The notes below the pieces were generated by a model. It saw only the letters and a program-made list of their open reading frames with translations, made no database searches and was not told where the DNA came from. 64,000 bases of DNA, taken from positions 40,858,001 through 40,922,000 of the forward strand of contig CM114271.1 in assembly GCA_050084515.1 (NCBI GenBank), read 5' to 3'. This DNA is from Blasia pusilla. Lineage: Eukaryota. Both the position numbers and the translations under genes were made by a program. This document shows positions 8,476-55,880 of this stretch, in pieces (the stretch's first letter is position 1; each line of letters starts with the position of its first letter).

Positions 8476-17654
<9,179 letters not shown>

Positions 17655-22852: not shown

Positions 22853-23349
22853 TGTCACGTCTCTTAGGATAGATCGACGAGGTTTAGTAGAGCGCATTTT
22901 TGAGTAGTGGAGGACAAGTTGAGAAGGTTGAGGATGACCTCCTGAGGCCCTGGAAAACCTGAGAGAGCAGGTTTCCCCTTCGTTTTGGCTCATTTGGCGC
23001 CATATTGGGAAACTTACTATTTTGGGTAAGTACCATTTTGAGTATATGGTCAACTTTCTATTTGAGAAGTGGCCCTTGACCTCCTACATCAGGTCAAGAG
23101 CCAAGGAGGTAACTTGAGAGCATAGGTTATCATGGAGAGAGCTTGGGAGAGGGGAGGATATACCTCAAGGAGAGAGCTCTTGAGAGCTCATTCTCTCTTT
23201 GTTGAACCTCTTGGCATGAGGCGGCGGAGCTATGGTCCCTTGCCTTGTGAGTGTAACCCAAGCCTCTCATTAGGAGAGTGGGTTTGGTTTGACATTGAGA
23301 GAGACATGTGAGAGCTATGGTGTTGTGAGAGAGATTTGACCTTATTTTA
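22853..23349 (+). repeat. Terminal repeat A1
   Basis: Aligns by eye with 55235-55749 and with the reverse strand at 62799-62310. Confidence 0.9.
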
Positions 23350-24062
23350 CAAAGAGAGAATGAGAGGGTGAGCTTTGGCCAACCGGCGTTCCAACCCACC
23401 GAGTCCTCAACTCGGCGTCTCATCAAGCTCAACCTTCCTTAGTTCCTAGCTTCCAACACATGGCAAGTCCTTCAAGACTTGGAACAGACTTTCTGGTTAG
23501 TCCAAGGATCTGAAACGGCACTTGCGCGCCTAGCGATCCCAACTGTTCAACGGTCCTCGGGTGAGTTCTGAACCAAGACCCAAGTAATTGAGTCGCGGGG
23601 TGGAATCCAAGAGGGATGTCTAAAATCGCCTCACTTCACTTGGTGCAGGTTTTCCAACCCAACCCCCAAACTCGCGTTCCGTTCCATGCCCTTGAGCCGC
23701 CCCGGGGCGCCCAAAGTGGGGTTTGGGTTCCAAGCACTCTCGGAGACCTTCCCCTTACTAGTACTTTTGGGGTTCTCCAATAACCCCTCCCCTTTGGGAA
23801 AAGAGGGTCGGGCCCTTCATTGTGGCCCTCAACCCGACTCCACTTACAGTCGTTTTCGGGTCGTATCTCGGCCGCTGCTTATGCGTTTGCAGAGATCTTT
23901 GGTGCGTTTGGACCGGCTCTCCATAAGCTTTCCAACGCATCCTTATGTTCTGGCCCTCCATCAGTGCCATCTACTTTACAACCTGTCACAACGGGGACAA
24001 AGTCAATAAACTACACTGAATTGCCAATGAATTGCAATATGGGCCTTCACATAACTTAATGA

Positions 24063-24727
24063 TCAAAGATCGTTTCTTATCCGCTCAAAGATTGGGTCGG
24101 TGTCTTGGCCCGCCAACTGCTCTGGGACAACAGTTGGCAAGTCCATTGGAAACTCGTCGATCCGATAGAGGTTGATTTCTTCTGCCAGGCTCAGAGACGA
24201 GGAAGACCGCTCTCCTGCTTCTTCAAAGATGTCCACCTTCTCCACGTTGGCGATCCTCATGACCTCATCGTCCGTCACTTGCACTTCGGAGGTTTTCTCA
24301 GCCGATTTTATATTGATTTTATATGCAGGAAATGTCCATGGACTTCATCGGGGACATTTCCTGCATCTCAACACTTTCGGTTGAACGGGATTTCTTCAAT
24401 GGCAACCGCTTTTTCCCTCCGAGCTTTTGCCAATTATGCTCTCCTCACCAACGCGTCCAGATGCTTCTTTTCACGCTTTTCCTCGACGATCCTTTTCTTC
24501 AAGGTCTGCGACGCCTCGGCCTCTGCATTCTGTTTTTCGAGCGCCTCCAAAACACGTTTTGCAAGAAGCTCCTACTTGTGCATGTCCGCTTCCCTTTCCC
24601 GCTCCTCGATCTCTTGCTGCCTTATCTCATTGGCCAAACGAGGCCCTGGAGATGGTGACGGAGGAGTCCTCATGGACTTGGGAGTGAAGCTCCCAACCTT
24701 GTTTGATTGAGATTTATTCCTCGTCAT
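24063..24727 (-). pseudogene. MULE ORF2, 5' part (charged, coiled-coil-like N-terminus), copy 1
   Basis: MTRNKSQSNKVGSFTPKSMRTPPSPSPGPRLANEIRQQEIEERERE is nearly identical to the ORF starting at 36481. A TATA-like box lies on the minus strand at about 24977-24987. Confidence 0.75.
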
Positions 24728-25074
24728 TGTTCCCGAAAATGCCTCCTCCTCGACAACCAAGTTATTTTCTCTGCATGATGAGTCGCCTTGATGAGTTACC
24801 TTGCTGATGTCACGATGAGTCACCTTGATGAGTCGCTCGAATCATCTCGCAATCATTCGCTCGAATCGTCTCATGATGAGTCACCATGTAAATCGCCCCG
24901 TGGTATCTGATGAGCTGTTGCGCGGAAGAGCAATCGAGATCGCGAAACGATAAACCGGAAATGAGCAAACCCTGGCCTATTTATACTTTTCAAGCCGTTG
25001 GGCTGACCGTTGGGTCACACCGTCAATCCGCCGGCGACGTGTCAGCCGTTATGGAAGTCTCGACGTGAAAACCA

Positions 25075-25530
25075 CCAACCCGACGACTCCGACCTGTTGC
25101 ACGCTTCCCGCGGGTTGTAGGCATCCGTCCTCCTCGGGTTAAAAAGCCGAGATATCCTGGAAACCCGTCGGAGACCGACCGGTTGCACGCCTCCGCCGTC
25201 TTCGGGCAAGAACGTGAGGTACCCGCGCAACCCGTCAAAGATCGGGGGGTTGCACGCTTTCCTAGTCTTGGGATAAGAAGGCGACGTATTTGCGCAACTC
25301 GTCGAAGGCCGACGGGTTGCACGCTTCCTTCATGTAAGCGTTATAAGACAAGGCACTTGCGCAACCCGTCGGCCTTGCGCAAAGGAGGCCGAAGGGTTGG
25401 CCTTGGGTAAAGGAGGCTGAAGGGTCGGCCTTGCGCAAAGGAGGCCGAAGGGTTGCACGCTTCCCTCATCTTGGGGTTATAGGCGAGGTACCTGGGCAAC
25501 CCGTCGTTTATTGACAGGTTGCACACTTTT
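25075..25530. repeat. 67-bp-period palindrome array, copy 1
   Basis: Units start at 25160, 25227, 25294 and 25361 (GCAACCCGTCG...CGACGGGTTGC), with a local slippage duplication at about 25370-25455. Confidence 0.85.
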
Positions 25531-26032
25531 CTATCCCTCGGGTAACAATGCGACAACACATAGTTCCGAGGCAACCCCTTGCAATCCCACGGGTCACAAG
25601 GTCTACCGTGAGTTGGACAATCCTGTAACAGTCCCCAAGGATTGGTTGCCTTAGCAAATGCAAGCGGTGTCTCGTGTTTGATGCTAGCAAAATTGACTTA
25701 AAAGACCATTGGTCAGCAAGAAGGTGGTACCAACCCAACGGACTCCGACGGGTTCCAACTTACATTGGGACACTGAAACAAAAAACGGAATTGGGTGCTT
25801 CGCTACCCACGTCTCTGATTCCCAAATTTTGCAACCTATCGGACTCCGACAGGTTGCAATAGAATTAAATCCATCTTGTCAGACAATCTCACCTACCAAA
25901 CTTCATCTTGTCAGTCAAATTCTGTAAGGAGAATCTGAGTCCCTATTCTCTATAAATTAAACATTCTCATACCCATACCCATTCTTATCCTTATTCTTAT
26001 TCTCAGTCTCCTCCCGGTGGAATCTTCAAGGA

Positions 26033-29000
26033 ATGGATAATTATGTGAACCTCACTTGTGGCAGTCATCTAGCAGCCCTTCCTCAATCAGAAATCGTTTG
26101 ACCGCAAGCTTGTGAGTCTTTCATACCAGTGGATGAAAATTTTCTCTCAGTTCGATTTTTTCTTCAAATTGGAACTGTCTTCGTGTCGAAGGATGCTAGG
26201 GTGGACGGTATGGAGGACATAATAGATGAGACAATCCAGCCAGTGATTGCAGACCGTAAATTATGGAATCTCCTACCTCTAGCAAATGGTCAATATAGAG
26301 TTTACGGCTTGTCTCTGAATTCCTCAGTTTCCCAAGTAGACGGTCGAGAATTTCCTAGTGCATCAAGCTCTACGTTTGCAACTCCTACTCAGTAGATCCG
26401 GCATTGACTTCAACTTCACACGCTCGTAACAGTGTTGTACTTCCTGAAAACATTCCGGACGTCGTCAACCTCAGTGGATCTGTCGGACACCAATCGGGCC
26501 CTGTGTCCGCCTACTCGTTCCTCTTGCGAGCATCAGGTAATAGTTTGCTCTTGTATCTGGACTTGAAAATGTTCAAGCACACTCTTGTTGACGAGCTGCC
26601 ATCCACGTACGATGGTAATTGCATTTTTGAGTTGCCTCCACTTGCTGCCCATGCTCAAAAGAAAGATGGAGGACGCTTGAAGGGTATGGACAGAAAGTCT
26701 GATTGTCATCGATGGTGTAGGCTTCAACGGACTAGTACTTCAATTCCAAATGGTCCTTGGTTTTTCTCCCGCCGCCAATGCGTTGGAGCCTTGGAGTGTA
26801 GAAGTCCAGCATGCCCGTATCTAGAGCGTAACGGGCGGGTCAATACATCGTAATTCCCCCCCAAGAATGCATAAACTCCATATGAGGTTGGTGCCACCAT
26901 ACTGCCGGGAGGCCATCGATGTCCTCATTGTAAGGCATCCCCTTTCTATGTTGGAGCGTGTCATGCATACATATTTTTCATTGTCCACAACTTGGGCTCC
27001 ACATCATAGTACACAAGGCTGGCAGTTCATGTTGGCTCCCACACTCATCCTGTGAGCGATGCAATTCAAAAACACATCAAAAAGGATGTGGCAAAGAAAG
27101 TGGCCGAGGTCTACAGAAACTCTCCGGGTTCAAAGCCCGGAGTGATAAAGCTAACAACAACATCACAAATTTTTGAACAATTGATTGGAATCCCTGGACA
27201 CGGCGAGATCACAACTGCTGAGGAGAAACAACTTTGGGAATATCTCGTATTTCTCGCTGATCCTGAATGCTTCCGAAATTTGATGCGTCAAATACGCGTA
27301 CTGGATGGAAAGACGGCCAAAATGGATTCCATTTCCAGAATCAAGGTCCGTCGAGTGGCCTCGATCTTATAGATCGAATGAGGGAAGGGGAAGATCTTTA
27401 CGACAGCTGGGTAAGCTTTGATATTTGCTACAGTGTGCTGAACGGATGGTTGACAATGGGTGCTCACGTTTATGACCGTGTGGAGAAGGGACTCAAAACT
27501 ATATTTGTCTGTGAAGTAAAAGCTGAAGACGTTGGCAGTTTGAAGATGTGCTGGTTACTCTTATTGGAGGTGGTGAAGGCAAAAGGCCAAAACAAAAGGC
27601 CATCTCCGGAAATTTATGGATTCATGGTGGACAATGCCAAACTTGGATGGATTGCTATGAGGGAAGTGTTCTGGGGTAGAGAGGTTCAACCGAAGAGGAA
27701 AAGGTTGGATGCTTTCCTGTGACCCGGTACACCAAATCTTGCATCAAGGAGAATAAGAGGACAGAGCATGTCACTCTGCTCCAACGCTGCAAGGAAAACA
27801 AAACCTTGAAACAGGCCATGGAATGCCAAGAAGAACTTCATGGGTGGTGGAGGAAACATGCGATTGAGGGGAAGTACAAAGAGTTACGCTCTGGGCTGAG
27901 TTGGTGGACTATACAAATGAGAAAATGGGGGAATTTCATGCGAGAGGTGAGTTCACTAATTTGTCTCGTCGAGCTCACGTGGATTTTTTTTTGAAGGGTG
28001 GGCACTACAGGGATTTCAAACCAAAGAAAACAACCAAGCCGTCGGATGCGACAGGTTGCCTGAGTGTGCAACCAGTCGGAAACCGACAGCTTGCATCAAG
28101 AATGTTTGTGTTACCCTTTGGAGCGCGACATCATGCACGAGGAATGTTTGTGCAACCTATCGGAACCTGACTGGTTGCATGAGGTGCAACCTGTCGAATC
28201 TCGACGGGTTGCAAGCCGCAAGGCTGTGAGTTACTCGATCTGCAACCCAACGCATTCTGACAAGTTGCGTCTTTCTGCAACTTGTGGGATTCCGACAAGT
28301 GGCGTCTGTATGTGACTCCTCGCATTTAGAAAGGTTGCGGATGTCTCCAAGTCGTAGCCAGACAAGTTGCATCAGTTCAAGTTAATTGGAACCCGTCGAA
28401 TTCCAATAGTTGCAAAGATTTGTGTGTGGAGACTTCTTGCAAGCCAACGGAATCCGACAGGTTGCACAAGGATTTTCGAGACCGGACCGGCCTGCTTCTC
28501 ACAACCCATACGATTCCGACGGATTGCAGTAGCAGGTTCCTAGGGGCTAGGTTGTAGTAAAAGGTTACTGGGACATTCCAAGGATGTCTCCCACTTGCAA
28601 CCCGTTTCAAGTTGGAGGCTGGAAAATCCATGTGCGATTCATCGAATTCCGATAACTTGCACTTGGATCTTCCAGCCCGGAGTGGCCAAAGCTACTTGCA
28701 ACCCGCTTGAATCCGACGGGTTGCACTAGGTGGTTCCTGGGTGTTGCAACATGTCGGAAACCGACGGGTTGCAGAGTCATTCATGGGATCCCTCCGACTT
28801 GCAACACGTCTAGTTTCGACAGGTAGCTTTTTTCTTTGCTCATAGAGCTATTTTGTTCCCTTCTCTCATTGCCGTCATTGCAGGGATTGAACATTCATGA
28901 AAATGCCCTCTGCCCCAACACAAGTTGAGTAGAAAGTGTTCATTCCTCCTGGAGGTCGTCAAAAGCATGCCAACGAATTTCACTTGTGGAGGCATGCCAA

Positions 29001-30391
29001 CAAGACGAGGCAAGAGAAATGCTACAGTCTGCAGCATCCCATATCTTCCTCACAAAAGGCATAACAAAAGGAAGGGGGCCTTCGATCTACAAGCTCTCTA
29101 TCAGGGCCTTAGTGAGATCGGGTGATGAGAAACTCTTTGTGGAAGCCTTCAATCGGTGCGTAGCAAGAACTCCCCGTGGAATCCTTCAATCGGTACGTAC
29201 ACACTGGTGGGGATATTCGTGGGCGCGTTTCAAGACATCCCATACAGATGGTGGTAGAGCAGTCCGAGAGAGACTCGTGGAGACTAGATAAATATCTTGA
29301 CTTCAAATAGGTGAAGAGGCAACATCGAGGAACGAACCCAGTGATTGATTTGGATGAGGAAATAACACCGGCAAGGTATTCGGAGACCTTGAATTGCTCC
29401 CAAATCCGTGATGCAGTATCTTCTCCAAAATCAGTGAATGTTTTATTTCAAAAGCCCTTTGTTGTTGGAAGTTCGTAACATCCGGTCGTTGGGGTGGTTC
29501 AATAGTATGGGATTCCGGTCATTGAGGTGGATTGCAATCTCAAACGGTGGCATATATCTCGGAGCAACCCTGGACGCGGACCCACATGCAGGGCAGGATC
29601 TGATGGCATTAGGAGAGCATACGGCACTTTCCTAAATAAGAACTGTACAAGGACTGGACGACCACTGCTTGGGTTTTGGGGACCCAAAACCTTTGATCAC
29701 GAGGACCCGTGATCAATTGAAGTACTTCTTCTGCCCAAATGAATCTTACGCTTTCCGAAAGTCTTATCTGGCTGCCATTGGAGCTCCGGGGAATACCCCC
29801 ACGATTTGGCCCATTGCCAAAAGTACGAATTGCACTCAAGACAAAGTGGACAATCTTATAAGTGCCGGTTTTAGACTCGTAGACGGAGGAAGTTGGGAGC
29901 ATGTTTGCTTTACAGAGACCTTTATATTTCGTTTTCAACCCAAGATTGATGTCAACATGTACCCGGAGAAGGTGGATGATCTCAATCCATTATTTCTGTT
30001 TGAGTCTAGAAATGGGGTGAAGAGAAACAGAATGTGTAGGCCAACGGTGGAGAGAGCAAAGCAGATTGCATCAGCTCGGGAGGCAAAAATGGAAATCATC
30101 GCCACGAAAGATATATTGAGTGGCAATGGAATAGGAAGGATGTATTGGATCAGGAACAACACTGTAAATTCAAGTGTCACAGGGGTGTATGTGGTGCACA
30201 TCTGTTGCTTTCCCACATGTTCATGTGATGATTTTGTCCAAAGAGAGACAAGTGGGAAAACGTATTTCCCTTGTAAGCACATGTACTATGTGTTGCTTGT
30301 AGTTTTAAGAGAGTCGGAGGTAGGAGTAGGAATCCACCAACCAATTATGTCCGTCAAAGAAGTGCGAAGTATTTTAAACAAACCACTTTGA
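26033..30391 (+). pseudogene. Mutator-like transposase: GCM/WRKY-like Zn finger + MULE DDE + SWIM finger, copy 1
   Basis: CVGALECRSPACPY...CPHC...HVGSHTHP; WVSFDIC; GFMVDNA; DAFH in the CxxH position (intact in copy 2); ESVHSSW; SWIM CSCDDF...PCKH. Introns at about 27947-28882. Stops, frameshifts and deletions are present. Confidence 0.85.
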
Positions 30392-30814
30392 GGATGCAAA
30401 ATGAGGTTTTAGATTGTACTTTCATTTTTCCAGAACCTTCACTTTGAGCTTGAACTCTATTTAGCCTAGGGCAAATGATAGATTTTTTCCAGACCTTGGA
30501 TGGAAAAAGTGATTGGTTCTACACTTATGATTCCATTGATTATTCCATTTTCTAAATTTTGTGCAATTTGCAACTCGTCGGACTTAGAGGGGTTGCCAAA
30601 ATGTGGAAGAGGAAAAAAATTTGTGGGAGTGCTCTAGAATTGAGCAGAAAAGTGCAAAAAAGTTCACACAAAAAGTTTCCTCTCTTCAACCCAACAGAAA
30701 CTCTCTTCAAATCATAGGAAACTCTCTTAAAAAAAAAGTATCTCTTTGGGTTGAAGGAAGTTTTCTCTGTCCTCTCTTTCTCTCTTTCTCTCTTCCTCTC
30801 CTCTTGCTGCACCT

Positions 30815-31315
30815 CTCAGATTGGAGGACATGCAGAAGACCGCATTTTGGGTATGGATCCTCATGGGAAGGAGTTTTTGTACCAGTGGTGATTCTTACCA
30901 TTTTGATTAAAGAACGTCCGGGTTGAGTTTCAGAGGGTCATGCATAGGATCTTGGCAAGTGTGGATTTTGCTAGGTGTTATATTGATGACATTGTAGTCT
31001 TTAGCGCCATGGTTCAGGAGCATGATCGACATCTGGACTCTAGAGGTATTTCGACGATTGTAGTTACATGGGCTAAAGCTACATCTAGGCAAGTGCAAGT
31101 TCTTCTACGACCAAATTGAGTACCTAGGTCATATGATATTCCCAAGGGGACTTGGTGTGCAGCAAAAAAAAGGTAGATGCTATTTCATGCATTCCACGCC
31201 CTTCATATGTGAGTTGAGTTTGTACATTCATCGGATTGGCGACTTCTATCGACGGTACGTCAAAGGTTTCAGTTTTATTGCAAAGTCGTTGACCTTGCTG
31301 ACCAAGGTGGATCAG
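30815..31315 (+). pseudogene. Reverse transcriptase core fragment of the split-repeat Gypsy
   Basis: EDMQKTAFW...EFQRVM...RCYIDDIVVFS...KCKFFYDQIEYLGHMI...YRRYVKGFS, with stops and frameshifts. Confidence 0.9.
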
Positions 31316-31708
31316 AAGTGCGGTAAGAGGAGAGGAAGAGAGGAAGAGAGGAGAGAGGAAACTACCTTCAACCCAAAGAGATACTTTTTTTTAAGAGAGT
31401 TTTCGTTGGGTTGAAGAGAGGAAACTTTTTGTGTGAATTTTTTTGCATTTTTTTGTTCAGTTATTAAGCAGTCCCACGGTTTTTTTTTTCTCTTCCATAT
31501 TTTGGCAACCCATCTGAGTCCGACCGGTTGCAAATTGCACAAAATTTAGAAAATTGAAAAATCAGTGGAATCATAAGTGTGGAACCAATCACTTTTTCCA
31601 TCCAAGGTCTGGAAAAAATCTACCATTTTCCCTGGGCTGAATAGAGTTCAAGCTAAAAGTGAAGGTTCTTGAAAAATGAAAGTACATCTAAAACCTCATT
31701 TTGCATCC

Positions 31709-34700
31709 TCAAAGTGATTTGTTTAAAATACTTCGCACTTCTTTGACGGACAGAATTGGTTGGTGGATTCCTACTCCTACCTCCGACTCTCTTAGAACTA
31801 CCAGCAACACATAGTACATGTGCTTACAAGGGAAATACGTTTTCCCACTTGTCTCCCTTTGGACAAAGTCATCACATGAACATGTGGGAAAGCAACAGAT
31901 GTGCACCACATACACCCCTGTGACACTTGAATTTACAGTGTTGTTCTTGACCCAATAAATCCTTCCTATTCCATTGCCTCTCAAGACATCTTTCATGGCG
32001 ATGATCTCCATTTTTTCCTCCCGAGCTGATGCAATCTGCTTTGCTCTCTCCACCGTTGGCCTACACATTCTGTTTCTCTTCACCCCATTACTAGACTGAA
32101 ACAAAAATAATGGATTGAGATCATCCACCTTCTCCGGGTACATGTTGACATCAATCTTGGGTTGAAAACGAAATGCAAACGTCTCTGTAATGCGAACATG
32201 CTCCCAACTTCCTCCGTCTACGAGTCTGAAATCGACACTTGTAAGATTGTCCACTTCGTCTTGAGTGCAGTTCGTACCTACGACGATGGGCCAAATCGTG
32301 GGGGTATTCCCCAGAGCTTCAATGGCAGCCGGATAAGACTTTCGGAAAGCGTAAGATTCATTTGGGCAGAAGAAGTAATTCAATTGATCCCCGGTCTAGT
32401 GAAACGATCAAAGGTTTGAGTCCCCAAAACCCAGGCAGTGGTCGTCTAGTGCTTATACAGGTCTTATTTAGGAAAGTGCCGCATGCTCTCCTTATGCCAT
32501 CAGATCCTGCCCTGCAGGTGGGTCCACGTCCAGGGTTGCTCCGAGATATATGCCACTGTTTTAGGTTGCAATCCACCTCCATTACCGGAATCCCATATTG
32601 TTGAACCACTCCAGTGATAGGATGTTGCGAACTTCCAGCAACGGAAGGCTTTTGAAATAAGACATTCACTGATTTTGGAGAAGGGTCTCCATCATGCATT
32701 TGGGACGGTCTGGGTCCGCGAATACCTGGCGGCGAATTTCTCATCCAAATCAATCACCGGATCCGTTCTTGATGTCGCCTCTTCACCGCTCAAGTCAAGA
32801 TACTTATCTGGTCTCCACGAGTCTCGCTCGGACTGCTCTACCACCATCTATATGGGACGTCTTGAAACCCGCCCATGAATATCCCCACCAATGTGTACGT
32901 CTTCCTCGAGGGGAGTTTCAGCTACGCACCGGTTGAAGGCTTCCACATACAGTTTTTCATCACCAGATCTCATAGCCGCCCTGACATAGAGCTCGTAGAT
33001 CGACGACCCCCTTCCTTTTGTTATGCCTTTTGTGAGGAAGATATGGGATGCTGCAGACTGTAGCATTGCTCTTGCATGGTCTTGTTGGCATGCCTCCACA
33101 AGTGAAATTCGTTGGCATGCTTGTGACAACCTCCAGGAGGAATGAACACTTTCTGCTCAACTTGTGTTGGAGCAGAGGGCATTTTCATGAATGTTCAATC
33201 CCTGCAACGACGGCAATGTTAGAAGGGAACAAAAATAACTCAGGAGTCAAAGAAATAAGCTACATGTGGGAACCAGACGGGTTGCAAGGCCGAGGCATCC
33301 CATGAGCGACTCTGCGACCCGTTGGGTCGCGACGTGTTGCGACCCTAAACCCACCTATTGCAACCCGTCGGATTCAGACGGGTTGCAAGAACCTGTGGCC
33401 ACTCAGGAAGATCCAAGTGCAAGTCATCCAAAACCCATCCGGGTCAAACTATTTGCAGGCCTTGTATACATGCGACTTGCATAATTGTCTATGGGTTGCA
33501 CCAAAATTCTGGATGCAACCCGTTGGTTTCCATCAGGTTGCACACTCGGGCAACCCGTCGCATCCGAAAACTTCCTTGGTTTCTTTGGTTTGAAATCCCT
33601 ATGGTTCCCACGCTTCTCAACTTGAGCTGCAACTTTACAAAAAATTCTCAGCGTGAGCTTGGCAAGACAAAATAGTGAACTCACCTGCCGCATGAAGTTT
33701 CCCCATTGTCTCATACGTACAGTCCACCAACTCAACTAAGAGCACAAATCTTTGTACTTCCCCTCAATCGCATGCTTCCTCCACCACCCATGAAGTTCTT
33801 CTTGGAATTCCATGGCCTGTTTCAAGGTTTTGTTGTCCTTGCAGCGTTGGAGTAGAGTGACATGCTCTGTCCTCTTATTCTCCTTGATGCAAGATTTGGT
33901 GTACCGGGTCACAGACTGTTGCCAATGGAAAGCATCCGATCTTTCTCTCTCCGGTTGAACCTCTCCACCCCAGAACACTTCCTGGATAGCAATCCACCCA
34001 CGTTGTGCATTTTCCGCCATGAACCCATAAATTTCCGGAGGTGGCCTTTTGTTTTCCTTCACCACCTCCAATAAGAGTAACCAGCACATCTTCAAACTGC
34101 CAACGTCTTTTGCCTTTACTTCACAGACAAATATAGTTGTGAGTCCCTTCTCCACATTGTCATAAACGTGAGCACCCATTGTCAACCATCCGTTCAACAC
34201 TCTGTTGCAAATATCAAAGCTTACCCAACTGTAGTAAAGATCTTCCCCTTCCCTCATTCGATCTATAAGATCGAAGCCACTCGACGGACCTGTGGTTGAC
34301 ATTTTGAAGACATAGGCCCTGGATCCCTGGATCCCTCGCCTCCTTGGCCCATGAACTGCCATCTCTGAATGAATGGAAATCTGGAGTTGGCCTTGATTCT
34401 GGCGATGGCATCCATTTCGGCCGTCTTTCCATCCAGAACCCGTATTTGACGCAGCAAATTCCAGAAGCATTCAGGATCAGCGAGAAATGCGAGATTTTCC
34501 CAGAGTTGTTTCTCCTCGGCCGCCGTGATCTCGCCCTATCCACGGAATCCAAGGATTCAATTCAGGCGTCCTCCATCTTTCTTTTGAGCAAGAGCAGCAA
34601 GTGGAAGCAACTCAAAAATGCAATTACCATCGTACCTGGGCGGCAGCTTGTCGACAAGAATGTGCTTGAAAATTTTCAAGGCCAGAGACGAAAGCAAACT

Positions 34701-35209
34701 ATTGCCTAATACTTGCAAGAGGAACGAGTAGGCGGACATAGGGCCCGGTTGGTGTCCGGCAGATCCACAAAGATTGATAACATCCGGAATCTCTTCAGGA
34801 AGAACAACATTGTTACGAGCGTGTGAAGTTGGAGTCGAAGCCGGATCTACTGAGCTAGGAGTTGCAAACGTAGAGCTTGGAGCACTAGGAAATTCTCGAC
34901 CGTCTACTTGAGAAACAGACGAATTCAGGGGCAAGCCGTAAACTCTCTATTGACCATTTGCTAGAGGTAGGAGATATATACTTTACGGTCTGCAATCACT
35001 GGCTCGACTATCTCACCTATTATGTCCTCCGTACCGTCCACCCTAACATCCTTGGATACAAAGATGGTTCCAATTTGGAGAAGAAATCGAACAGAGAGAA
35101 AATTTTCATCCACAACTATGAAAGACTCAAGAGCTTGCGGTCGAACAATTTCTGATTGAGGAAGGGCCGCTAGATGACTGACATAAGTGAGCTTCACAGA
35201 ATTATCCAT
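31709..35209 (-). pseudogene. Mutator-like transposase, copy 2
   Basis: MDNSVKLTYVSHLAALPQSEI start; SWVSFDICNRVLNGWLTMGAHVYD; SDAFHWQQS; SWIM finger. The GCM-like segment is deleted near 34550. Confidence 0.85.
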
Positions 35210-35484
35210 TCCCAGAGATTTCGTACGGGAGGAGAGTGAGAATGAGAATTTTTAATTTATAGTGAATAGGAAATCAAATTCTCTTGACAGAATTTTACTA
35301 ACAAGATGAAGTTTGGTAGGTGAAATTGTCTGACACAATGGATTCAATTCTGTTGCAACCTGTCGGAGTCAGGTGGGTTAGAGGATTTGGGAAGCAGAGA
35401 CGTGGGTTGCGAAGCACACTTCATTTTTTTGGAACCTGTCGGAGTCCAGGTAACTCAACTATTAACCCAAGCTAAGCAAAGCCT

Positions 35485-43176: not shown

Positions 43177-43436
43177 AACATGAGGAAGGGGGTAGGCGAA
43201 TGCCCCGTGCTTCGCGAAGTCACGGCACTGTACGAAGATATCTGATGCTTCACGAAGTAGCGAAGCACCGAAGTTCAGGCGGCCCATGCTTAGCGAAGCG
43301 GCGAGCGCAGAAGATAGGAAGGGAAGCGTGGCGAAGCGCGGCGCCCACTTTCTTATTCTGACCCGGCGCCACGACCAGAACGGACAGGGGGAAGCGGACT
43401 ATAAGAGCGATCTAAGCGTACCCAGCGGGTATTTTC

Positions 43437-45181: not shown

Positions 45182-45381
45182 AGTCTCGGAGTCACTTAGT
45201 TGTTAACAAGTCGTGAGAAAGAATGCGCAATCATACCCCTTACATTATCAACAAACCTTCTACAATTCATGGCCGTTTGGTGCCTACCCCTGAATTTGAT
45301 AGTTTAGACGACAAATTTATGGAGATAGCAGATACATCATGAAGTGTTCGCCGGGGCGGCTCACATTTGAGGGAGGGGGTA

Positions 45382-46520
45382 TGTGATACCCACAATTTTG
45401 TAATCTTGAAGAATATATCTTTTTATTCAACGAAGACTCTTGTATATTATGATTTTGATTATGATTATCTATTAGTATGAAGAAGAAAAAGTGAATCACC
45501 AAGCTCCGAAGACAAGGCAGAGAGATAAAGATCAAGGATTTGCCTTAGAGGAGAATCAAAAGCTGAAAAGAAGCTCAGCGAAGCTTAACAGAGTTTAACA
45601 AAGTCTAACGAAGCTCAACGAAGCTCTATATACGAAGTACTTTGCTCTTGAACGAAGAGCGAAGCACGAAGCACGAAGAAGAAGGAAGAATTTCGTCCTC
45701 CGGAAATTTAGCGCAGCGAAGCTCAGCATGATTGAGATTTGAACCGACACATAGTTTAAACAATTAGACTAGGAAAGGGCGCGATCCTTTGTATCAAATT
45801 GGTAGTTAGGACAGTTTTGTACCGTGGATTCATAGGGATCGTAGGAAAAGCTAAGAGAACCATAGATCTAGGTAGTTACAGATATTGAAAAGACACACCC
45901 TTCATCAAGAACGCTTCGGATCATAGAAACGATCCTACTCTCGAGAATATTTAAGAAACAAGACAGAAGCTATTAGCATCATTCGCTCATGACGTCCTTA
46001 TGTTGTAGGAATGGTCCGAGCAAGAGAGTTATACCCTCTCGAGCTTGTAGATACTTTGTAGTCTTCCAATTCTTGATAGAGTAATAAAGCATTCATTCAT
46101 TCATTCTGATGTGCGATGCTTATGTCTGAACATTCTTTTTGGGTCTGCCGAGTGAAGAGTGAATCAGGCGAACCGTTCTCATCAATGGAATAATCAATAT
46201 AAAGTTGTATGAAATCTGTTTGACAGAGAGTAACCTGCCCCGACGGATTGAGTTCCGAAAGTAGGAGAAGCCAGCTTTATTCTCGAGATCTCTCTGAGGT
46301 TCCGAAATGTTGAGAGAACAAATTTCCTGAGCGTCCTTTAAACTCCAGTCGAGAGAATTGAAGAAGAAAACATAGGTACTAAGAAGGATCGGAAGCTGAT
46401 ACTGGAATACTACAATTGAATTACATAATCAATTACACTTTTACAACATAATCATCACCTTATACTCTCTTTTCATCCAACAATGATCCTCTTGGGGATC
46501 GAACTCTACAATTGACTGTA
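45382..46520 (+). repeat. 3' LTR (right-truncated)
   Basis: Begins TGTGATACC after the PPT; homology with the 5' LTR stops at TTGACTGTA. Confidence 0.85.
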
Positions 46521-49500
46521 AATAAGAAACACTTAGACATTACACAATCCGTCGGAGTCCGACGGGTTGAAACTAGGCAATCACAAATCTGAATGCAATC
46601 CGTCGGACTCCAATGGGTTGCATAATTTAGCTCGTTGCTAGAATCCGACTTTGAGCTGTGACGACCTGTCGAAGTCCGACGGGTTGCAGGAACCCATGTA
46701 CCTTACAAAATTTCTTATATTGAGTTTGGATGTGCAGGATTGTATCGGAGGGGAATGTCACCCACCACTGGATCCATGATTGCGATCGGGTGAAGAAAGT
46801 GCTTACGACGCACCCAGCAGAGTAGAAGGGGTTCTTGGGCGAGGCCCTGGTAAATCAGATGCTGGAAAAGGGTGCACAAATCAAAAAGAAGACTTGGACA
46901 AATAAGTTTATTTCCCAAGATGCTGCCGTCACAATCCTTTGCTGGTCGAAGATACATGCCGCGAAGAAGAGCGTTGCATTGGAGCTGGAGCGGAGGGAGA
47001 AAGTATCTGTGTCTAAGCGTGCAAAATTCATCCAAGGTGCAGTATCTACAGCTACGAAGTACACGGCAAGCAAGATGTACCGCTATATTGCCATTCTTAA
47101 CCCCAAACTTGGTCCGGGGTTTTACAAGGAGCTGAAGGTGATAATCAAGCGCCAATGGAAAAGGGATGAAGATCCGCAAGGTCCGATTCGGGAGAAAGTG
47201 TCTCTCGATCGCGTGCATCGATTTGCGTTGTCTAGAATAAGCAAATTTAGGAGAATCGGACTGATGAAAATCAGTCTCGAGGGCATAGAGGCCCAAAAGA
47301 GGGCGGCACACCATCGTTCGGGTGTCTCTGATTGTGTCCTCCCTCAGGCAGACCTTGACGAAGAAATCGAGGGGAAAAAGAGGGATCTCGCAAAGAAGAA
47401 GCGAGATCTTCAGGAGCAGGCGGCCGATGCAGTTTGACTAAGAGCTGCCCGACGTATGGTGTTCAGGTACTTCGTCCATTGTAAGAATGCAGGTGCATGG
47501 GGAAGAATACCGTAGCGTGCAAATTGTGGGCTTCTCCGCCTGATGGAGAGATATTCTCCATGTACGACACGAAGATGGCTCAGCGCATGTCCGATTGGGA
47601 GGTGAAAAATTTCCCGATTTGGCTGGACTTCAACGACCCTGAGGACATTACTGAGAAAGATTAACGCGTGCTTTATGATACAGTGGCCGCACGACGGGAC
47701 GACATCCCCAATTTTGTGCAGCCTGAAGACTTTTTCGAAGGAGATGCGGAAGAGCAAGCCCTCCGGACAGCGGAGTTGGCTTCCAAGGTCCACACAGCCA
47801 AAGACAAATCTACAGCGGGTCTCAAAGGCAAGGCGAGGGGAGCGAAGAATTCCAAGGCCGAGTCTTCCCAAAGAGAGGCTGAAGATTCAAGGCCAGAGCC
47901 GGAATCTTCCAGGCGAGCGGGGAGAGAGGGTCGGACCAGGTCCTCCGCAAAAAAAACCCCCCTAGAGTCTGAGGTCCTAGAGACCCCAACAAGCCGACCG
48001 CAAACTCGGGAGAAGCGGAAGCGAGAGGCGCCAGGGTTGTCCCAAGGAGAATACAGTCCATCATCCTTGGGAAGACATAGAGAAACAACGACCTGGACAA
48101 GCGTCCTCCTTCAATTCACGAATTTACTGGATGAGTTGAAAAGTTTCAGTTCTCAAGCGTCGACACCCGCCATTGATAAATTGACAACGTTGGGACGGAA
48201 GCTTCAACGAAACGGGCACGCTCCCTGGACGGTCAATGGAGTGGTCGAAGAGGTGGCGGTGGATCTATTGATCGCTGATTTGCCCTCGGGGTTGCGATTG
48301 TGGGACGAGAATCCGTCGGACGGAATCCTAGACTCGAATGTTCCCCTTTCTTATGACTAGATCGCGCTTCTGTTTTCCTTTGCAGACGCTTATCTGAGTG
48401 ACAGGGGCTGCTTCTTAGTTTTGACTGGAGGGAGCGAGGACGAGCTTTTCAACCTCTTGTGCGTCAAGAGGTTCGCTGAAGTGGAGGACGGCGCAATCGT
48501 GGATAATCAAGAACGAGTACCTACTCCGATCCACGACGAGTCAAATTCGGGTAAGGCTCTATTCCTGTCTCCAGATTATATTTCTCCGACGTGTTGTTTT
48601 TGTCCGTGAGCAACCCGTCGGAAGGCGACAAGTTGGTCATGGACAAAAACAACCCGTCGGACTGCGACAGGTTGCTCCAATGTTAGTATTATAAAGAAGT
48701 TCTCTAGGGTTAAGCAAAGTTCTTTGGTGACGTGTTGCACATTATGTCACCATACTGAGAGTAGACCAGTGGCCAAGTTGTTGACATTGTTTCCAACGTG
48801 CTTCTTTACAGATGGACCACTCCTATGTTTACTGCTTCGTTCGGCTTGAGCACAACTTCCAGGTGTTTAAGATCCAGGATCCTGTGGATCCATGCTCCGA
48901 TGGGTACAACTTAGATAGTTTATACGATTCCCTCCCGAGAATTTACATGCAAGACGGTACCCCACTACTTGGAGGAAGGGAAAAGTCGCCAGCCCTGATG
49001 CAAACGCTCATCGAGCTCTGCTCAAGGCCGGGTGACTTGGTGTTCGACTTAGTGGGCCTTTCAGGGGCGAGTATCAAAGGCGCCTGGCAGAGTGGCAGGA
49101 ACATTCTCTGCCTCGAGGGAAGGCAGGAACTATTTGACCTTTGCAAGGAGGCAAAGGCAGATTATGACAGGCTAGTTGGGGCGTACAACTCTCCCCCGAA
49201 GCCGAGAGCTCCGGTTCCAGACCCACCATTGGTAGTGACACCATCGTTACTTCCAACGATTCCGAAAATCGGGAGGGCAAGGCCGAAAGTAATTTTGCAA
49301 GAGCTCTCGGACGATGACGAGAGAGTTCAAAGAACTCAAGGACCCAGCTTGACTACAAAATTTGGAGTAGGGATTTATTTGATGATGAGGCAAAAGATTT
49401 CATAGAATAGATTAAATGTACAGTTTCGAGCTTCTTTCGGATGTAATAAAGGAGAAATTTTTTTCGAACGATGGTGGTGTTTCTAAAAGTTTGTTGAATA

Positions 49501-51276
49501 TCTTTTATGTCTTTTCGAATGTGATTGTCTATGTACTCCGCGGACTTCTGTTTTGCAACCCGTCGGATTTCCACGGCTTGCAACTTTTCACTTTTTGACC
49601 ACTGCACCTTTTTAACCACTTCAAGCAACCTGACGGATTCCGACAGGTTTCCTGATCGGACTCTTTCCCTGTTGGTCCAACTTAAGAGGCAGTCTGGCAA
49701 GCTTCTTCACTTTGGCACCTTCCCCTAGTATCATCAAACAAGGCGTAGGCTTCTTCTCTTCTCTCAGACGTGTTGGATTCCTACTACCTGTGGGATTACC
49801 ATCATGGTATTACCAAGGACGGAGCACATATTGATAATGGATGGGTGTCACATTGTAGAGCGTACAAGATATACTGCCGAGGAAGGCGGTGGGACTCAAA
49901 TCAGGTTACATGGGACCGTTATGGTGTACCTAGGGGGGGCCAAGGCTCTCGAATTCGCCAATATTTTTGATCCCGGTCTACAATCAGCCAGAGGAGCCAC
50001 TTGTATCCCAGGACATTCCTTTTGTACAGGAACCTAGGAGAGTTAGGAGTGAATTTGTAGATGACGAGGCTGAAGAAATCATAGACTAGGTCAAATGTAC
50101 ATTTCCGAGGTTCCTTCGGAGGTAATAAAGGACGAGATTTTTTCAACCGATAATGGTGTTTGTAAAAGTTTGTTGGAAATTTTATTTGGACTTGTGGATT
50201 GTGTTCTTTTAGCTACTCATAATTACAATTTTGCAACCCGTATGATTCTGACGAGTTGCAACATTAAGCTTTTTTCCCACTGCAACTTTTTAACCATTTC
50301 TAGGAAAGCTGTCGGATTCCGACAGGTTGGCTGCTTGAGTGATCGGACTCTTTCCCTGTGAGACCAACTTCTGACACATTGTGGAGGGCTTCTTAACTTT
50401 TGGCTCGTTCCCCTACATTGGTCAAACCAGTTGTAGGCTTCTTTTCTTGTCTAAGATGTGCAGGATTCCTACTACCTGTCGGATTGCCATTTCGGATTCC
50501 CAACCCGTTAGATTTTTGTGGGTGCAGGGTGGAAGGGAATCACTTCTCAAAATATTTCCTTTCTTATGGTGAGCTTGCTTGCAAGGGGTGCAAGCCATCT
50601 GATTCCGATGGGTTGCAAGAGTAGCAACCTGTAAAATTCCGATGGGTTGCAAGAGTTGCAAACTGTAAAATTCCGACGGGTTGGGAGGGGTGCAGCTTCT
50701 CGATTTCTCAGATTTAGGATCTGAATGAAGGGACATCAGTTCCTCTTTACTCCAGACAGCTAACAATCTTTTGGTTCAATTATCGTCTCATGTGTTCACA
50801 TTTCACAAAGTTGGTCTTGAGTAGACACCACTCATAACCAACAGAAAGTTGGTTATGAGGCAATTCAGGGGAGGCCATGATGCAGGCAACAATACCTGCA
50901 AAAAGAGAGGTTGGCATCATACCGATGCGCATCCGGGTGTTCCTCCAAAAAAATACCCATAGACATTGCTTATTGTAGACCGAGACAGGCAATGTTAAGA
51001 AACTTTGGCTCACATGGAGAGTGATGGAAAAATGTTTGTAGTGGTCTTATGATGTCTACTTTTTTTCGCCCCTTGGAAAAAGGAGGTTACTTTAGGCCCG
51101 AATGTGGACCACTACCTACTCTCTTCTAAAGATTTCATGAATTTGAAAGCAAACAAAAATTTCAAATATGTCAAAAAGTTTTGAAGAGAGGAGGCGGATT
51201 TGGCCCTTTTTTTTGAAGAGAGACTCTCCTCTCTTCCTCTCCTCTCTTACTCTCTCCTGCCAAAATACCGGGCCCT

Positions 51277-53074
51277 GGTGGATCAGGAGTGGCACTCAGG
51301 GGATGAGCAAGAGAGATCATTTTAACTCCTCAAGGACATATTGATGTCCACACCCATATTGAAGAGACCGATCAGGGGGCGTCCTTTCCAGTTGGATACC
51401 GATTAGAGCATGTTGGGGCTTGGAGTCGTGCTCACACAACATGACTATGATCGTAGAGAGTTCGTGGTAGCTTACGCTAGTCGCTCGAACAACGCTCTAG
51501 AGATGAAGTATAGCTCGTATGAGGGTGAGTGCTTGGCTGTGGTGTGGGCTATTGCACATTTCAGGTGTTATCTATTTGGAAACCCCTTTACCATCATTAT
51601 TGATCATCAGCCACTTGAGTGGTTGATGGAGTACGACAAGCTTACAGGGAAGCTTGCAAGGTGGGCTCTTTTGTTGTAGAAGTATGACTTCCAGGTGGTG
51701 CATAGACCTAGGATGCTCAACCAAGATGTAAATAGTTTGAGCCCTAACCCATACGCAATTCAGCGAGATCCGATTGGAGCTTGTTGGCATAGAGAGAGCA
51801 ATGAGGAGTTATTTCCAGGATGGCACGCGTCAGCCTATTTGGGCTTGTTGGCTAGGAGAGCCAGATTGCTGAGACTTTGATGGCAAGGTCTGATGGAGAG
51901 TCCTTAGATCCAGAGACCGGTGAGGAGATGACAGGTGGCCGATATATTCACGACAAGGGAGTAGTCTTGGAGTACCTGCGTACTAATAGCGTCGCGAGCA
52001 CAGTAGATGCTAGAGAGTGGGATCAAATCCTACAACGAACCACACGGTTCCAGTGGGAGGGGACACATGTGTTGCACATTTGGGAGGAGGGTAGAGTACG
52101 TGTAGTGCCTCATCATTCACAAAGAGCACGTTTGGTACGTCATGCCCACGAGGAGTTGGGTCACTTTGGAGTGAAGTGGAGGTATAACTTACTCTAAATA
52201 TAGTATTGGTGGTGAGGCATGTAGAATGACGTTCAGCTGTTTGTTGCCAAATGCATGGTGTGTGATCGGGTCTGAGTACCATTCAATGCTCCAACTCCAC
52301 AATTACATCCACTTCCAATCATGGGTTAAGGTTATAGATGGAGTTTGGATTTTGCAAGACCTTTGCATTTGACGGAGCGCCATAATCGTTATGTATTGGT
52401 GATGGTCGAGTACTTCTCAAAGTGGATAAAGTTGGTTGCATTTCCTGACAAAGCGAGTAAGGGAGTAGCGTTTGCCTTCCTGGATTGAGTGCTAAGTCAT
52501 TATGGCGCCTAGTAGAGGTGTTGATAGACCCAGGTAGAAATTTTGCGGGGAGTTTAAGGTCTTGTATGATCATGTGTTGATCGACCACTGCACCACTTCG
52601 CGAGATCATCCTCAAGCGGATGGACTAGCGGAGAGGGTTGTGCAGACTTTGAAGAGAGGATTGAGCAAGTATGGTTTGCAGAGAGATCACCTAGGAGATT
52701 GGGACCTCTAGTTGTCGTGGTTGGCGATGGGATACAAATTCAATACGCAAGCATCTTTAGCGTCTTTCTCACTAAACTTGCTACTTTATGGTCAAGAGCC
52801 AGATTTTACCTATGGCCATTTGTCGAGATGTTGGTCAGCTGTTGAATCTTGATGACCTTGATGTATGGATGCGAGCATGTTCTCAGAGGGCTGATTTTTT
52901 TGGAGATTGATTTCCATGGCGTTTGAGAACTTGGCGATTGTGCAGCATCGGGATACGTTGAGGTATGTGACTATTTGGGAAGGTGGTTATCGATCTACTA
53001 TCCGGAGGTTTCATTAGGGAGACTATGTCTACTTGCAGCAGACGACACCCACGACATTGAATGTGGTTGTAGGT
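51277..53074 (+). pseudogene. RT end, RNase H and integrase of the split-repeat Gypsy
   Basis: RPFQLDTD, VVAYASRS, YSSYEGECLAVVWAIAHFRCYL, DHQPLEWL, HAHEELGHFG, WSLDFA, HPQADGLAERVVQTLK. Confidence 0.9.
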
Positions 53075-53090
53075 GTGCGTGAGATTTTGC

Positions 53091-54615
53091 CCAAAATTTT
53101 TGATCCCCGTCTATAATCGGTCAGAGGAGCCACTTGTATCCCAAGATATTCCTTTTGTACAGGAACCTAGGAGAGTTAGGAGTAAATTTGTAGATGACGA
53201 GGCTGAAGAAATCATGGACTAGATCAAATGTACATTTCCGAGCTTCCGTCGGATGTAATAAAGGACACGAAGTTTTTGAACCATGATGGTTTTTGTAAAC
53301 TTATGCTCAATAGTTTTTCGTTCTAGTCGATTGTGTTGGTCTATCTACTCGAGGCTATTTACTTTGCAACCCGTCGGATTTCGACGGGTTGCAACTTGTC
53401 ACAATATTTTAAACCCCTTGCAGGCAACTTGTCGGATTCTGACAGGTTGGCTGCTTGAGTGATCCCACTCTTTTCTTGTTAGTCCAACTTTTCAGGAATT
53501 TTGGTAGGCTCCTTCACCTTTTCCTCGTTCCCCCATTGTCGTCATACCATTCTTCTCTAACACGATATTTCAGAGACGTGTTGGATTCCTACAACCTGTT
53601 GGATTCTCATGTCAAATTTCCAACCAGTCGGGATTCACATGGGTTGCAGGGTGGAATGGAATCACTTCTCAAGATCCTTCTTTTGTTGTGGTTTGCTTGC
53701 TTGCAAGGGGTACAACCCATCGGATTCCAACGGGTTGCAAGAGTTGCAACCTGTCGGATTCCAACGGGTTGGAAGGGTGCAACCTGTCGGATTCTGACAT
53801 TTAGGGTCTGAATGAAGGGACATGGATGCATCGGTTCCTCTTTACTCCTGATAGTTATCAACCTTTTGGTTCAAATTGTCCTCTCAGTCTCATCACATTT
53901 TCTTCTTGATGCATACATTTCTCAGTGGCTGAGAGAATGGTGAAACCAAGTTGTCAAAAACGCATAGCACTCCATGGTATACTTTATGCACCCCCATTCA
54001 TGAGCCAACATCATCCAATGCTATCATGAAAGTCTTTGGCTACCATCAGTGATGAGTGATTTGTTATGTTGTGGAAAACTCCCTATGGATGAGTATTGAT
54101 TGGATGGGATATTTAATGCAAGAAGAGTCAACAATCCATAATGTCAACCACATCTTCAAAGAAGTTAAACCTTGAAAGGCACAGAAGTCTATCGAGACCA
54201 TAGTAAGAGTCTTTATTTGAACCTTTCATTGAGATGAAATTGCTACTTCGGGTCAAATTATCTGCAATTGTCCTCCAACAATAATACCCCTTGGCCCTGC
54301 TTACTGTAGATCTGGCTTAGACAAGCAATGTGAAGAAAATTGGGCTTATGTGGAGAGAGATAGAAGGATGTTTGTAGTGGTCTTATGATGTTTACTTGTT
54401 CTTCCAAGCCTGGAAAAACAAGGTTACTTTAGGCCCGAATGTGGTTCACTTGCTACTCTCTTCTAAAGATTTCATGAATTTAAAAGCAAACAAAAATTTC
54501 AAAAATGTAAAAAAAAATTTGAATAGAGAAGGCGGATTTTGCCCTTTTTTTTTTAAGAGAGACTCTCCTCTCTTCCTCTCCTCTCTTACTCTCTTTTGCC
54601 AGAATACCAGCCCCC
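53091..54615 (-). mobile_element. MULE family copy 3 (ORF2-distal terminal fragment)
   Basis: Homologous to about 49958-51276, including the terminus ...CTCTTACTCTCT...AATACCAGCCCCC; splits the Gypsy integrase tail. Confidence 0.85.
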
Positions 54616-54930
54616 GCGCACTATCTTGAGAATGCGTGAGATTTTACCATCTTGTGTTCTCTTATTGAAGGGATGCGATGGTATGGTTTGGAATGACCAT
54701 GTGCATAATTGTGCGCCATGTCACTTTCCAAACATTAACGGTATAGTTGATCCAAGCTTAGCAGTAGTTCCTACAGGCTTACGATGTATGTTTTGTGGTT
54801 CCGCCCGTGGTGCAACCACTATGCTAGTCTGGGATGGATGTTCGAGAGGATGGCATATGGTATGTTTGACGCCACCTCTCACTAGGGTTCTTTAGGGACG
54901 ATGGACGTGTCCCAGATGTACATAGAGTAG
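54616..54930 (+). pseudogene. Integrase C-terminus with PHD finger
   Basis: RTILRMREILP...CMFC...LVWDGCSRGWHMVCLTPPL...WTCPRC, a C4HC3 spacing with one Cys mutated. Confidence 0.85.
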
Positions 54931-55108
54931 GTAGTTCTAGATTCTGACTTGTGTATGTGATATGGATGACAAGAAGGCGACTAACGATGGAGCCACATGA
55001 GCACCCAGCCATTTTGCTCTTAGCATCATAAAGATGTTTGTCATAGTAGATAGGGATAGATGACTACGTAGAGTTAGAGGGACCTAACCACCAGCTAGGG
55101 AGCGACTA

Positions 55109-55232
55109 GAGATATTTTGGTAGTTCTCGCCTCTATGTTTGGGTGCCATCAATTAGCATGGGATCGTGTGTGTTTGTATGTGTGTTCGGTGACAGCGAAG
55201 TATGTTGTGTAGCGATGTGTATGTGCACAACA
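55109..55232 (+). repeat. Repeat B1
   Basis: GAGATATTTTGGTA...GTGCACAACA, repeated at 55753-55880. Confidence 0.9.
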
Positions 55233-55234
55233 AC

Positions 55235-55749
55235 TATCACATCTTTTAGGATAGATCCGTGAGATCTAGTGGAGCGCCTTCTCGAGTAGTGGAGGACACG
55301 TTGAAGAGGTCGAGGATGACCTTGTGAGCCCTAAGAAACCTGAGAGAGCATGTTTTCCCTTCGTTTCGGCCCATTTGGAGCTATATTGAGGAACTTATTA
55401 TTTTGGGTAATTACCATTTTTTAGTATATTATCAACTTTTTATTTTGGGAAGTGGCCCTTTACCTCCTACATTAGATCAAGAGCCAAGGAGGTGACTTGG
55501 GAGCATAGGTTACCATGGAGAGAGCTTGGGAGAGGGGAGGGGTATACCTCAAGGAGAGAGCTCTTGAGAGCTCATTCTCTCTTTGTTGAATCTCTTGGCA
55601 CAAGGCGGCGGAGCTATGGTCCTTTGCCTTCTGAGTGTAGCCGAAGCCTCTCATTAGAAGAGTGGGTTTGGTTTGACATTGAGAGAAACATGTGAGAGTG
55701 CACATATGTGAGAGCTATGGTGTTCTGAGAGAGATTTGACCTTATTTTA
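55235..55749 (+). repeat. Repeat A2
   Basis: TATCACATCT...CTTATTTTA, homologous to A1. Confidence 0.9.
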
Positions 55750-55752
55750 TTG

Positions 55753-55880
55753 GAGATATTTTGGTACTTCTCGCCTCTATGTTTGGGTATCATGAGTTAG
55801 TATGGGATCGTGCGTGTTTGTGTGTGTGTGTTCAGTGACAACCATATATATATTGTGTAGCGATGTGTATGCGCACGACA
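55753..55880 (+). repeat. Terminal repeat B2
   Basis: Homologous to B1; ends in CA at the junction with the hAT ORF. Confidence 0.9.

Follow-up and report, generated by a model that had tools for sequence, protein, structure and literature searches.

A Gypsy family of Blasia pusilla with split A...B-A-B repeats and a putative integrase attachment site inside its LTR

We analysed a 64,000-nucleotide (nt) stretch of the Blasia pusilla genome (assembly GCA_050084515.1, CM114271.1 positions 40,858,001–40,922,000, forward strand; hereafter the window), in which positions 22853–55880 hold a Gypsy retrotransposon whose repeats, A and B, are arranged as A1...B1-A2-B2 instead of as two paired long terminal repeats (LTRs). 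This copy is a broken member of an abundant plant Gypsy family, and the A...B-A-B layout is family-wide, not a local accident. On the signatures set out below, we read the family as a Ty3/Gypsy lineage in which the integrase attachment site would lie inside the U3 region of the LTR, and not at the cDNA ends, with joined cDNA being opened at that site; we put the probability of this reading at about 0.7.

Self-BLAST of the window pairs A1 (22855–23349) with A2 (55237–55749) at 86% (E 3e-171) and B1 (55109–55233) with B2 (55753–55881) at 84% (E 9e-33), confirming the split repeats that had been recognised in an earlier reading of the letters (the sequence-only reading), with small border changes (Table 1) that leave a spacer at 55233–55234. 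The TG...CA outer ends described there are equally present, as TGTC at 22853 and GACA at 55880. A single hAT-like transposase gene is split between the sequences flanking these ends and, because its halves are contiguous around a 4-bp target in seven of the seven empty-site homologues fetched, A1 and B2 are the ends of a single insertion. The target-site duplication (TSD) reads AGGA on the left and AGGC on the right, a match at three of four positions, and the empty sites mostly carry AAGC. Only 22853–23372, 30812–31320, 51277–53073 and 54616–55880 are the element's own DNA, about 4 kb of the 33 kb; nested elements have swollen an element of ~10 kb to this span, and gag, protease, the methyltransferase and the 5' part of reverse transcriptase (RT) are deleted. 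The whole span had been taken for an integrase-encoding element, and it does contain the element's own broken integrase, although most of it is foreign. The supposed independent copy at 62799–61603 belongs to the same family but is a deletion derivative, consisting of A, the primer-binding site (PBS), ~520 bp of leader and an 88-bp fragment of A fused to a B that lacks its first ~22 bases; no TSD surrounds it (flanks ATGT and AGTA).

A search of the 390-Mb genome (26 contigs) returned thousands of candidate matches to both element ends, with more than 1,200 exact matches per end motif. The mapping of 52 stretches gave a common order for the ~10-kb element: A, leader, gag, protease, methyltransferase, RT, RNase H, integrase, PHD finger, tail, B, two bases, A and B. 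Termini and TSDs of further copies follow the same pattern, the 4-bp TSD being exact in 12 of 14 young copies and matching at three of four positions in the other two; in 14 older copies it is exact in five and matches at three of four positions in six. A 5-bp TSD was rejected, since at most two of five positions matched in those older copies. No copy with two complete A+B LTRs, the structure that would have made the locus a product of tandem insertion or recombination, was found, and no B end among the loci chosen by their A-B sequence runs on into PBS or leader. This comparison rests on the A-B-chosen loci, because the 20 left ends in the 52-stretch mapping had been picked with an A+leader query and are uninformative on this point.

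A G-tract lies directly before B1, and directly after A1 stands a 16-nt PBS exactly complementary to sequence ~335 nt inside A. None of the 21,984 16-mers of window positions 1–22000 has a complement in A1, and across the genome there are 893 matches to a motif running from the polypurine tract (PPT) through B and two bases (NN) into A, and 1,421 to the A-PBS motif, against 0 for the reversed controls. Since the G-tract precedes B1 and the self-priming PBS follows A1, the unit B-NN-A would constitute a hidden LTR. The sequence-only reading had seen no recognisable tRNA PBS after A1; a PBS does sit there, of the self-priming kind. Its proposal of a DDE-integrase Gypsy lineage with this layout and a non-standard cycle holds for the family as a whole, but its placing of the oddity in priming and strand transfer does not: PBS and PPT define an ordinary-looking LTR, priming looks Tf1-like, and the oddity appears to sit in the integration step. 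Standard reverse transcription would yield two B-NN-A LTRs, so that A1 should equal A2, and B1 should equal B2, at insertion. We parsed 14 of 26 pairs of young copies (five were dropped for want of A1 in the fetched stretch and seven were unparsed). One copy shows 0/513 differences between A1 and A2 and 0/128 between B1 and B2, and the distances within and between elements are 0.020 and 0.039 for the 5' part of A, 0.012 and 0.017 for its 3' part, and 0.015 and 0.026 for B.

Within the family B ends in GACA, A starts with TGTC, and the spacer between B1 and A2 is two bases, nearly always purine-pyrimidine, such that each genomic end is one half of the palindrome GACA-RY-TGTC, the spacer being absent. 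If both strands were cut after CA, the products would be precisely the recessed ends that integrases insert, and this is the action we infer for the present enzyme. We also considered a fixed difference between a TATC start in A2 and a TGTC start in A1 and rejected it; both forms occur at both places, consistent with methylation decay. The window's B1/A2 junction (...ACAACA-AC-TATCAC...) had been likened to an end-to-end joint: the letters are as described, but B1/A2 would be an uncut attachment site and the end-to-end joint would be A2/B2.

The A2/B2 joint varies in a particular way. Among 72 distinct joints, 50 are flush, 19 carry an extra A (+A), two carry +AC and one is of another type, while inspection by eye of the first 100 of 1,293 joint matches gave 76 of flush length and 18 with +A; extensions found once each are +AC, +ACAA, +11 nt of PBS, +A with one PPT base, +T and another +3. 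Base for base, the extensions repeat the PBS (+A, +AC, +ACAA, +11), or they add a PPT base, and +AC, +ACAA and +11 are beyond homopolymer assembly error. On the A tree, +A requires 19 changes for 19 rows and is present in both end subfamilies (54 of 69 branches open). There are also 27 matches to B-NN-A-PBS, several of which are right ends overrunning 40–200 nt of leader before B2, and two of which fold back at the PBS/self-primer pair. The joint resembles a 2-LTR-circle junction, in which the right cDNA end would have been joined to the left with variable remnants of the primers.

Relatives were collected by integrase alignment (82 loci, 44–70% integrase identity). B...B is present in 29 of them and the full A...B-A-B in four. 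In the 27 B...B loci compared, from which the apparent duplicates L228 and L242 are omitted, a G-tract always precedes B1, and 25 of the 27 have a GAC/TA-RY-TRTC site; three of the four full copies have a 4-bp TSD, and self-priming matches of 11–17 nt occur in three of the four as well as in L246 and L179. The G-tract, the attachment site, self-priming, primer remnants at the joint and the 4-bp TSD are kept in at least four repeat families whose A and B sequences are unrelated. The repeat sequences have changed and the logic of the layout is kept; the layout is a cross-species feature. The homologues carry the labels Marchantia, Calypogeia and Sphagnum, and no named Klebsormidium sequence is among those listed. 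A scan of prokaryote genomes gave two close matches resembling plant contigs in a binned genome, the remainder being weak. Two loci from a bin labelled as a cyanobacterial genome (L246 and L247, CADCWO01) carry a plant-type Gypsy-DNMT3 element and are probably mis-binned eukaryotic DNA; the 127-bp overlap between the ends of L246 is what a collapsed circular assembly typically shows.

The cycle suggested by this anatomy would run as follows. RNA would start ~335 nt into A1 and end in A2, its 5' 16 nt pairing with the PBS behind A1 to prime the minus strand, as in Tf1, with the plus strand primed at the G-tract before B1. Standard reverse transcription would give a linear cDNA flanked by two B-NN-A LTRs; the right end of this cDNA would then be joined to its left end, leaving the variable primer remnants at A2/B2. 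Integrase would cut the palindrome GACA-NN-TGTC of the upstream LTR after CA on both strands, and the two recessed CA-3' ends, with 2-nt overhangs, would be inserted with a 4-bp TSD to produce A...B-NN-A-B. Joining could either precede cutting, through a true circle, or follow integration, through host repair of two free cDNA ends. The upstream site would probably be favoured, as it would be duplex at once after second-strand transfer whereas the downstream site would wait for ~9.5 kb of plus-strand synthesis. We lean, with rather less confidence, towards a broader version in which a streptophyte-wide Gypsy-DNMT3 clade would have moved its site into U3, would obligately join its cDNA ends and open the internal palindrome, would depend on end-joining repair, and would have converged on the split-repeat layout of tyrosine-recombinase (YR) elements.

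Several observations weigh against an internal attachment site opened in joined cDNA. No cDNA intermediate was seen. Of the two sites that a free closed 2-LTR circle would offer on equal terms, the upstream one is nearly always opened: the product ABA...B is nearly absent (one match, a tandem, against 893) and an A end precedes B in 0 of the 27 B-NN-A-PBS loci, so that unbiased cutting of such a circle is not supported. At L285, one of the 27, the left end is an uncut B-NN-A. In older copies B1 and B2 are hardly closer within than between elements (0.093 versus 0.101), and three young copies have an A1 whose 5' half is nearer to other elements (ranks 10–13 of 14). The joint tree is poorly resolved at its 54 open branches and the scatter of +A on it is given without a shuffle control; moreover, +A alone could include homopolymer assembly errors, suspected because young copies have many frameshifts. 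Finally, the raw RNA runs, whose reads come mostly from older copies, contain no sharp RNA start or end.

Among the alternatives, we regard as unlikely a scheme with the same hidden LTR and joint in which the TGTC end arises during synthesis, by a nick or RT stop, and integrase then carries out ordinary 2-nt trimming of one or both ends. It would account for the 893:1 polarity without a choice between two equal sites, and for A...B copies with TSD (four of four positions in L030 and L037, three of four in L035, none in L031); it requires, however, that the B piece, once freed, be retained and attached to the right end, and both cDNA ends seem to have been completed first, given that each primer has left remnants at the joint. 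A shade less probable is copying of the PAT/Ngaro kind, with RNA spanning A1 to B2 and template switches onto B1/A2 rebuilding both ends before integrase inserts the product. The repeat order is indeed that of PAT/Ngaro/SymbioDIRS elements (PMC5890265), a few RNA reads cross A2/B2, and reads locate neither a 5' nor a 3' RNA end. Such copying leaves unexplained why the PPT abuts B1 and the PBS abuts A1, and why PBS and PPT remnants of variable length occur at A2/B2; a templated joint should be uniform or follow subfamilies, whereas +A is scattered. The reads, which are sense-biased for the family, include 84 that pass from A into the PBS, about four times the mean depth of ~19 found in B2, whereas the A-PBS and A/B-joint junctions are about equal in DNA (1,421 and 1,293); with no sharp start seen, this lends the proposed cycle weak support.

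The repeat order, typical of YR elements, might instead mean that the integrase is a passenger and that a circle enters the genome at the B/A junction through a YR acting in trans, an idea to which we give little credence. No YR match was obtained in 138 six-frame fragments (at least 65 amino acids (aa)) of two copies, a genome-wide search for YR genes not having been made, and two uninterrupted relatives have as frames of at least 250 aa only gag-protease-DNMT and RT-RNase H-integrase-PHD. The TG...CA ends, the loss of a 2-nt spacer and the varied 4-bp TSDs fit DDE chemistry, and the catalytic D and E columns of the integrase are nearly invariant. Least credible of all is that this is an ordinary Gypsy with A+B LTRs, seen here as a tandem insertion, recombination product or assembly artefact. 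The locus is heavily nested and deleted, and eight solo A-B units with TSD (four exact, four at three of four positions) look like solo LTRs; but dozens of independent copies share the layout, contigs of other datasets have it with unrelated repeats, no A-B unit is seen running into leader, and the flanks prove one insertion. We reject a local accident on the basis of the family-wide copies, the relatives and the empty-site flanks.

The coding content places the family among Gypsy elements. Pfam matches in family copies comprise a C5 methyltransferase, RT, the integrase zinc (PF17921) and core (PF00665) domains and a PHD finger. The methyltransferase (PF00145, E 5e-12) lies inside the polyprotein region, has PC and ENV motifs and finds DNMT3A as its top PDB matches, the closest among solved structures, while for the pol of a relative Ty3 Gag-Pol is the best match of known structure (E 7e-100). 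An LDSG-like protease motif is visible in translations, without a Pfam match. The second D and the E of the integrase are 34 residues apart in the alignment of relatives; the usual spacing is 35, and this difference of one may relate to the unusual integrase substrate. No chromodomain match was found in the 138 fragments or among the homologues listed, a PHD finger being present instead. The domain order, a DDE integrase with HHCC domain, PBS, PPT, TG...CA ends and 4-bp TSD are all as in Ty3/Gypsy, but the integrated copies lack two complete identical LTRs at their ends, the upstream LTR being split with A on the left and B behind A2. By enzymes and priming the family is Gypsy and not a DIRS-order element; by integrated structure it is no ordinary Gypsy.

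The methyltransferase and RT frames are parted by a single in-frame TAG followed by CAR-YYA (L110 6532–6540, L246 3489–3497, L179 5083–5091), with TAG CAA CCA at this border in 31 of 37 family copies. CAR-YYA after a stop is described as the type I readthrough motif of plant viruses (PMC5382211), and pol is probably made through stop-codon readthrough. None of six young copies examined in the assembly has long open frames. Other arrangements include head-to-tail family arrays sharing one B-NN-A unit (L268, L272, L279 and L293) and a periodic array of ~1,036 bp containing the A/B joint (G000:C1:7357758-7359863); L008 was rejected as a full-length model as it contains another element and a deletion.

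The layout itself is already known from one figure legend. KnitGypsy-Dnmt3 of Klebsormidium nitens is given DIRS-like repeats and Gypsy domains (de Mendoza et al. 2018, PMC5890265, Fig. 4c legend) and, by that paper's description, resembles the Blasia family in its Gypsy domains, Dnmt3-like C5 methyltransferase and A-coding-B-A-B repeats. It is reported from a charophyte only, and the accessible part of the paper gives no priming sites, TSD, attachment site or mechanism, whereas the Blasia family sits in a land-plant genome in over a thousand copies, with a PHD finger and a stop-readthrough junction; for the putative hidden LTR, the joint signature and the internal attachment site the present analysis supplies evidence at the sequence level. 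In the literature within our reach, which did not include subscription papers, Repbase or bioRxiv supplements, we found no account of layout or mechanism beyond the 2018 legend, and a 2026 preprint, in its accessible part, mentions streptophyte Gypsy-DNMT3 without structure. The Tf1/Sushi and plant Tcn1 Gypsy elements are described as self-priming (PMC6317226, PMC2864245), with a PBS complementary to LTR-derived sequence, no tRNA, and a PPT before the downstream LTR, as here. Their LTRs are complete and paired, and TG...CA stands at the ends of their cDNA, whereas the TG...CA site of the Blasia family would lie 128 bp inside the LTR, and they carry a chromodomain after the integrase where we detect a PHD finger.

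PAT/Ngaro/SymbioDIRS elements share with the Blasia family the A...B-A-B order and, on the reading proposed here, integration at the internal B/A junction of a joined intermediate, but in the latter no YR was detected and protease, DDE integrase, PBS, PPT and a 4-bp TSD are present. The resemblance looks convergent. DIRS-order (PAT/Ngaro) elements are not known to have a DDE integrase or protease. In copy-out-paste-in elements of the IS3/IS30 type a DDE enzyme integrates from abutted ends with a 2–3 bp spacer; these are DNA transposons without RT, and their junction is made by the transposase and not carried in an LTR. Prototype foamy virus integrase is reported to cleave a palindromic LTR-LTR junction with the loss of two nucleotides (PMC1180852), which is how the Blasia enzyme would turn a CA-NN-TG palindrome into two processed ends. 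In foamy virus, however, the cut site is the end-to-end junction itself, whereas in the Blasia family the joint would be left alone and a separate U3 site opened.

Table 1. Features of the window copy and its surroundings (window positions).
Feature	Position	Strand	Support
Left TSD copy, AGGA	22849..22852	+	Flank comparison with empty sites
A1, upstream LTR without its B part; begins with the TGTC half of the putatively opened attachment site	22853..23348	+	
16-nt self-primer sequence (putative transcript 5' end), exact complement of the PBS	23187..23202	+	
Self-priming PBS, directly after A1	23349..23364	+	A-end+PBS motif, 1,421 genome matches
Foreign DNA in place of leader, gag, protease, methyltransferase and 5' RT: fragment of another retroelement and SWIM-finger-like element	23373..30811	.	
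Own RT, 3' part, broken	30812..31320	+	
Nested insertions dividing RT/RNase H, including a separate ordinary-repeat Gypsy (36646-46520)	31321..51276	.	
Own RNase H and DDE integrase, broken (stops, frameshifts)	51277..53073	+	PF17917 E 1e-28; 81-82% to young copies
Nested fragment dividing the integrase C-terminal region	53074..54615	.	
Integrase C-terminal region with PHD finger, and 3' non-coding tail	54616..55095	+	PF00628
PPT, decayed; TAGGGGGGCG in young copies; directly before B1	55096..55104	+	
B1, 5' part of U3 and first 128 bp of the putative hidden LTR; its terminal GACA half-site reads AACA here	55105..55232	+	
Putative uncut internal attachment site; family form GACA-RY-TGTC, decayed here	55229..55238	+	
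A2, remainder of the downstream LTR	55235..55748	+	
A2/B2 joint, right cDNA end presumably joined to left cDNA end, flush here	55745..55753	+	
B2, B part of the upstream LTR, presumably relocated behind A2; ends in GACA	55749..55880	+	
Right TSD copy, AGGC	55881..55884	+	
Second, internally deleted copy of the same family	61603..62799	-	

The clearest matches to RT, RNase H and integrase, at 38835–41970 (minus strand), were rejected as parts of the split-repeat element, as they belong to the separate nested Gypsy at 36646–46520; this has ordinary paired 876-bp repeats at 97% (36646–37519 and 45650–46520) with pol on the minus strand, additional plus-strand open reading frames (ORFs) at 42709–45178 without a Pfam match, and termini without clear TG...CA or TSD. 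An element with a SWIM-finger-like ORF occurs as several copies or fragments (24567–30811, 31327–36641, 46520–51276 and 53074–54615), the motif having been recognised by eye and the ORF having no Pfam match. It has many short palindromic repeats and a common C/T-rich end; two copies are inverted and three interrupt the Gypsy pol. Its ORF at 48785–49402 gives a weak N6/N4 DNA methylase match (PF01555, E 2e-4, below cut-off). The transposase gene split by the insertion (22354–22852 and 55881–57137), which we take to be hAT/ZNF862-like, is multi-copy (323 candidates), and at window positions 9570–11204 there is a degenerate tandem repeat whose minus strand has long open frames.

If the proposed cycle is correct, the Blasia family would be a natural, high-copy LTR retrotransposon whose integrase ignores the cDNA ends, and the supposed dead-end circle junction would be a normal part of every insertion. 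The family would make testable an old dispute, namely whether end-joined cDNA with CA-NN-TG cleavage is a productive route or a dead end. REXdb is described as built from predictions requiring paired LTRs, TSDs and TG/CA termini (PMC6317226); the A...B-A-B layout would fail the paired-LTR requirement, which suggests that the clade is under-annotated because of paired-LTR-based prediction. The DIRS-like repeats of KnitGypsy-Dnmt3 would gain an explanation, and methyltransferase-carrying retrotransposons would extend into land plants at scale.

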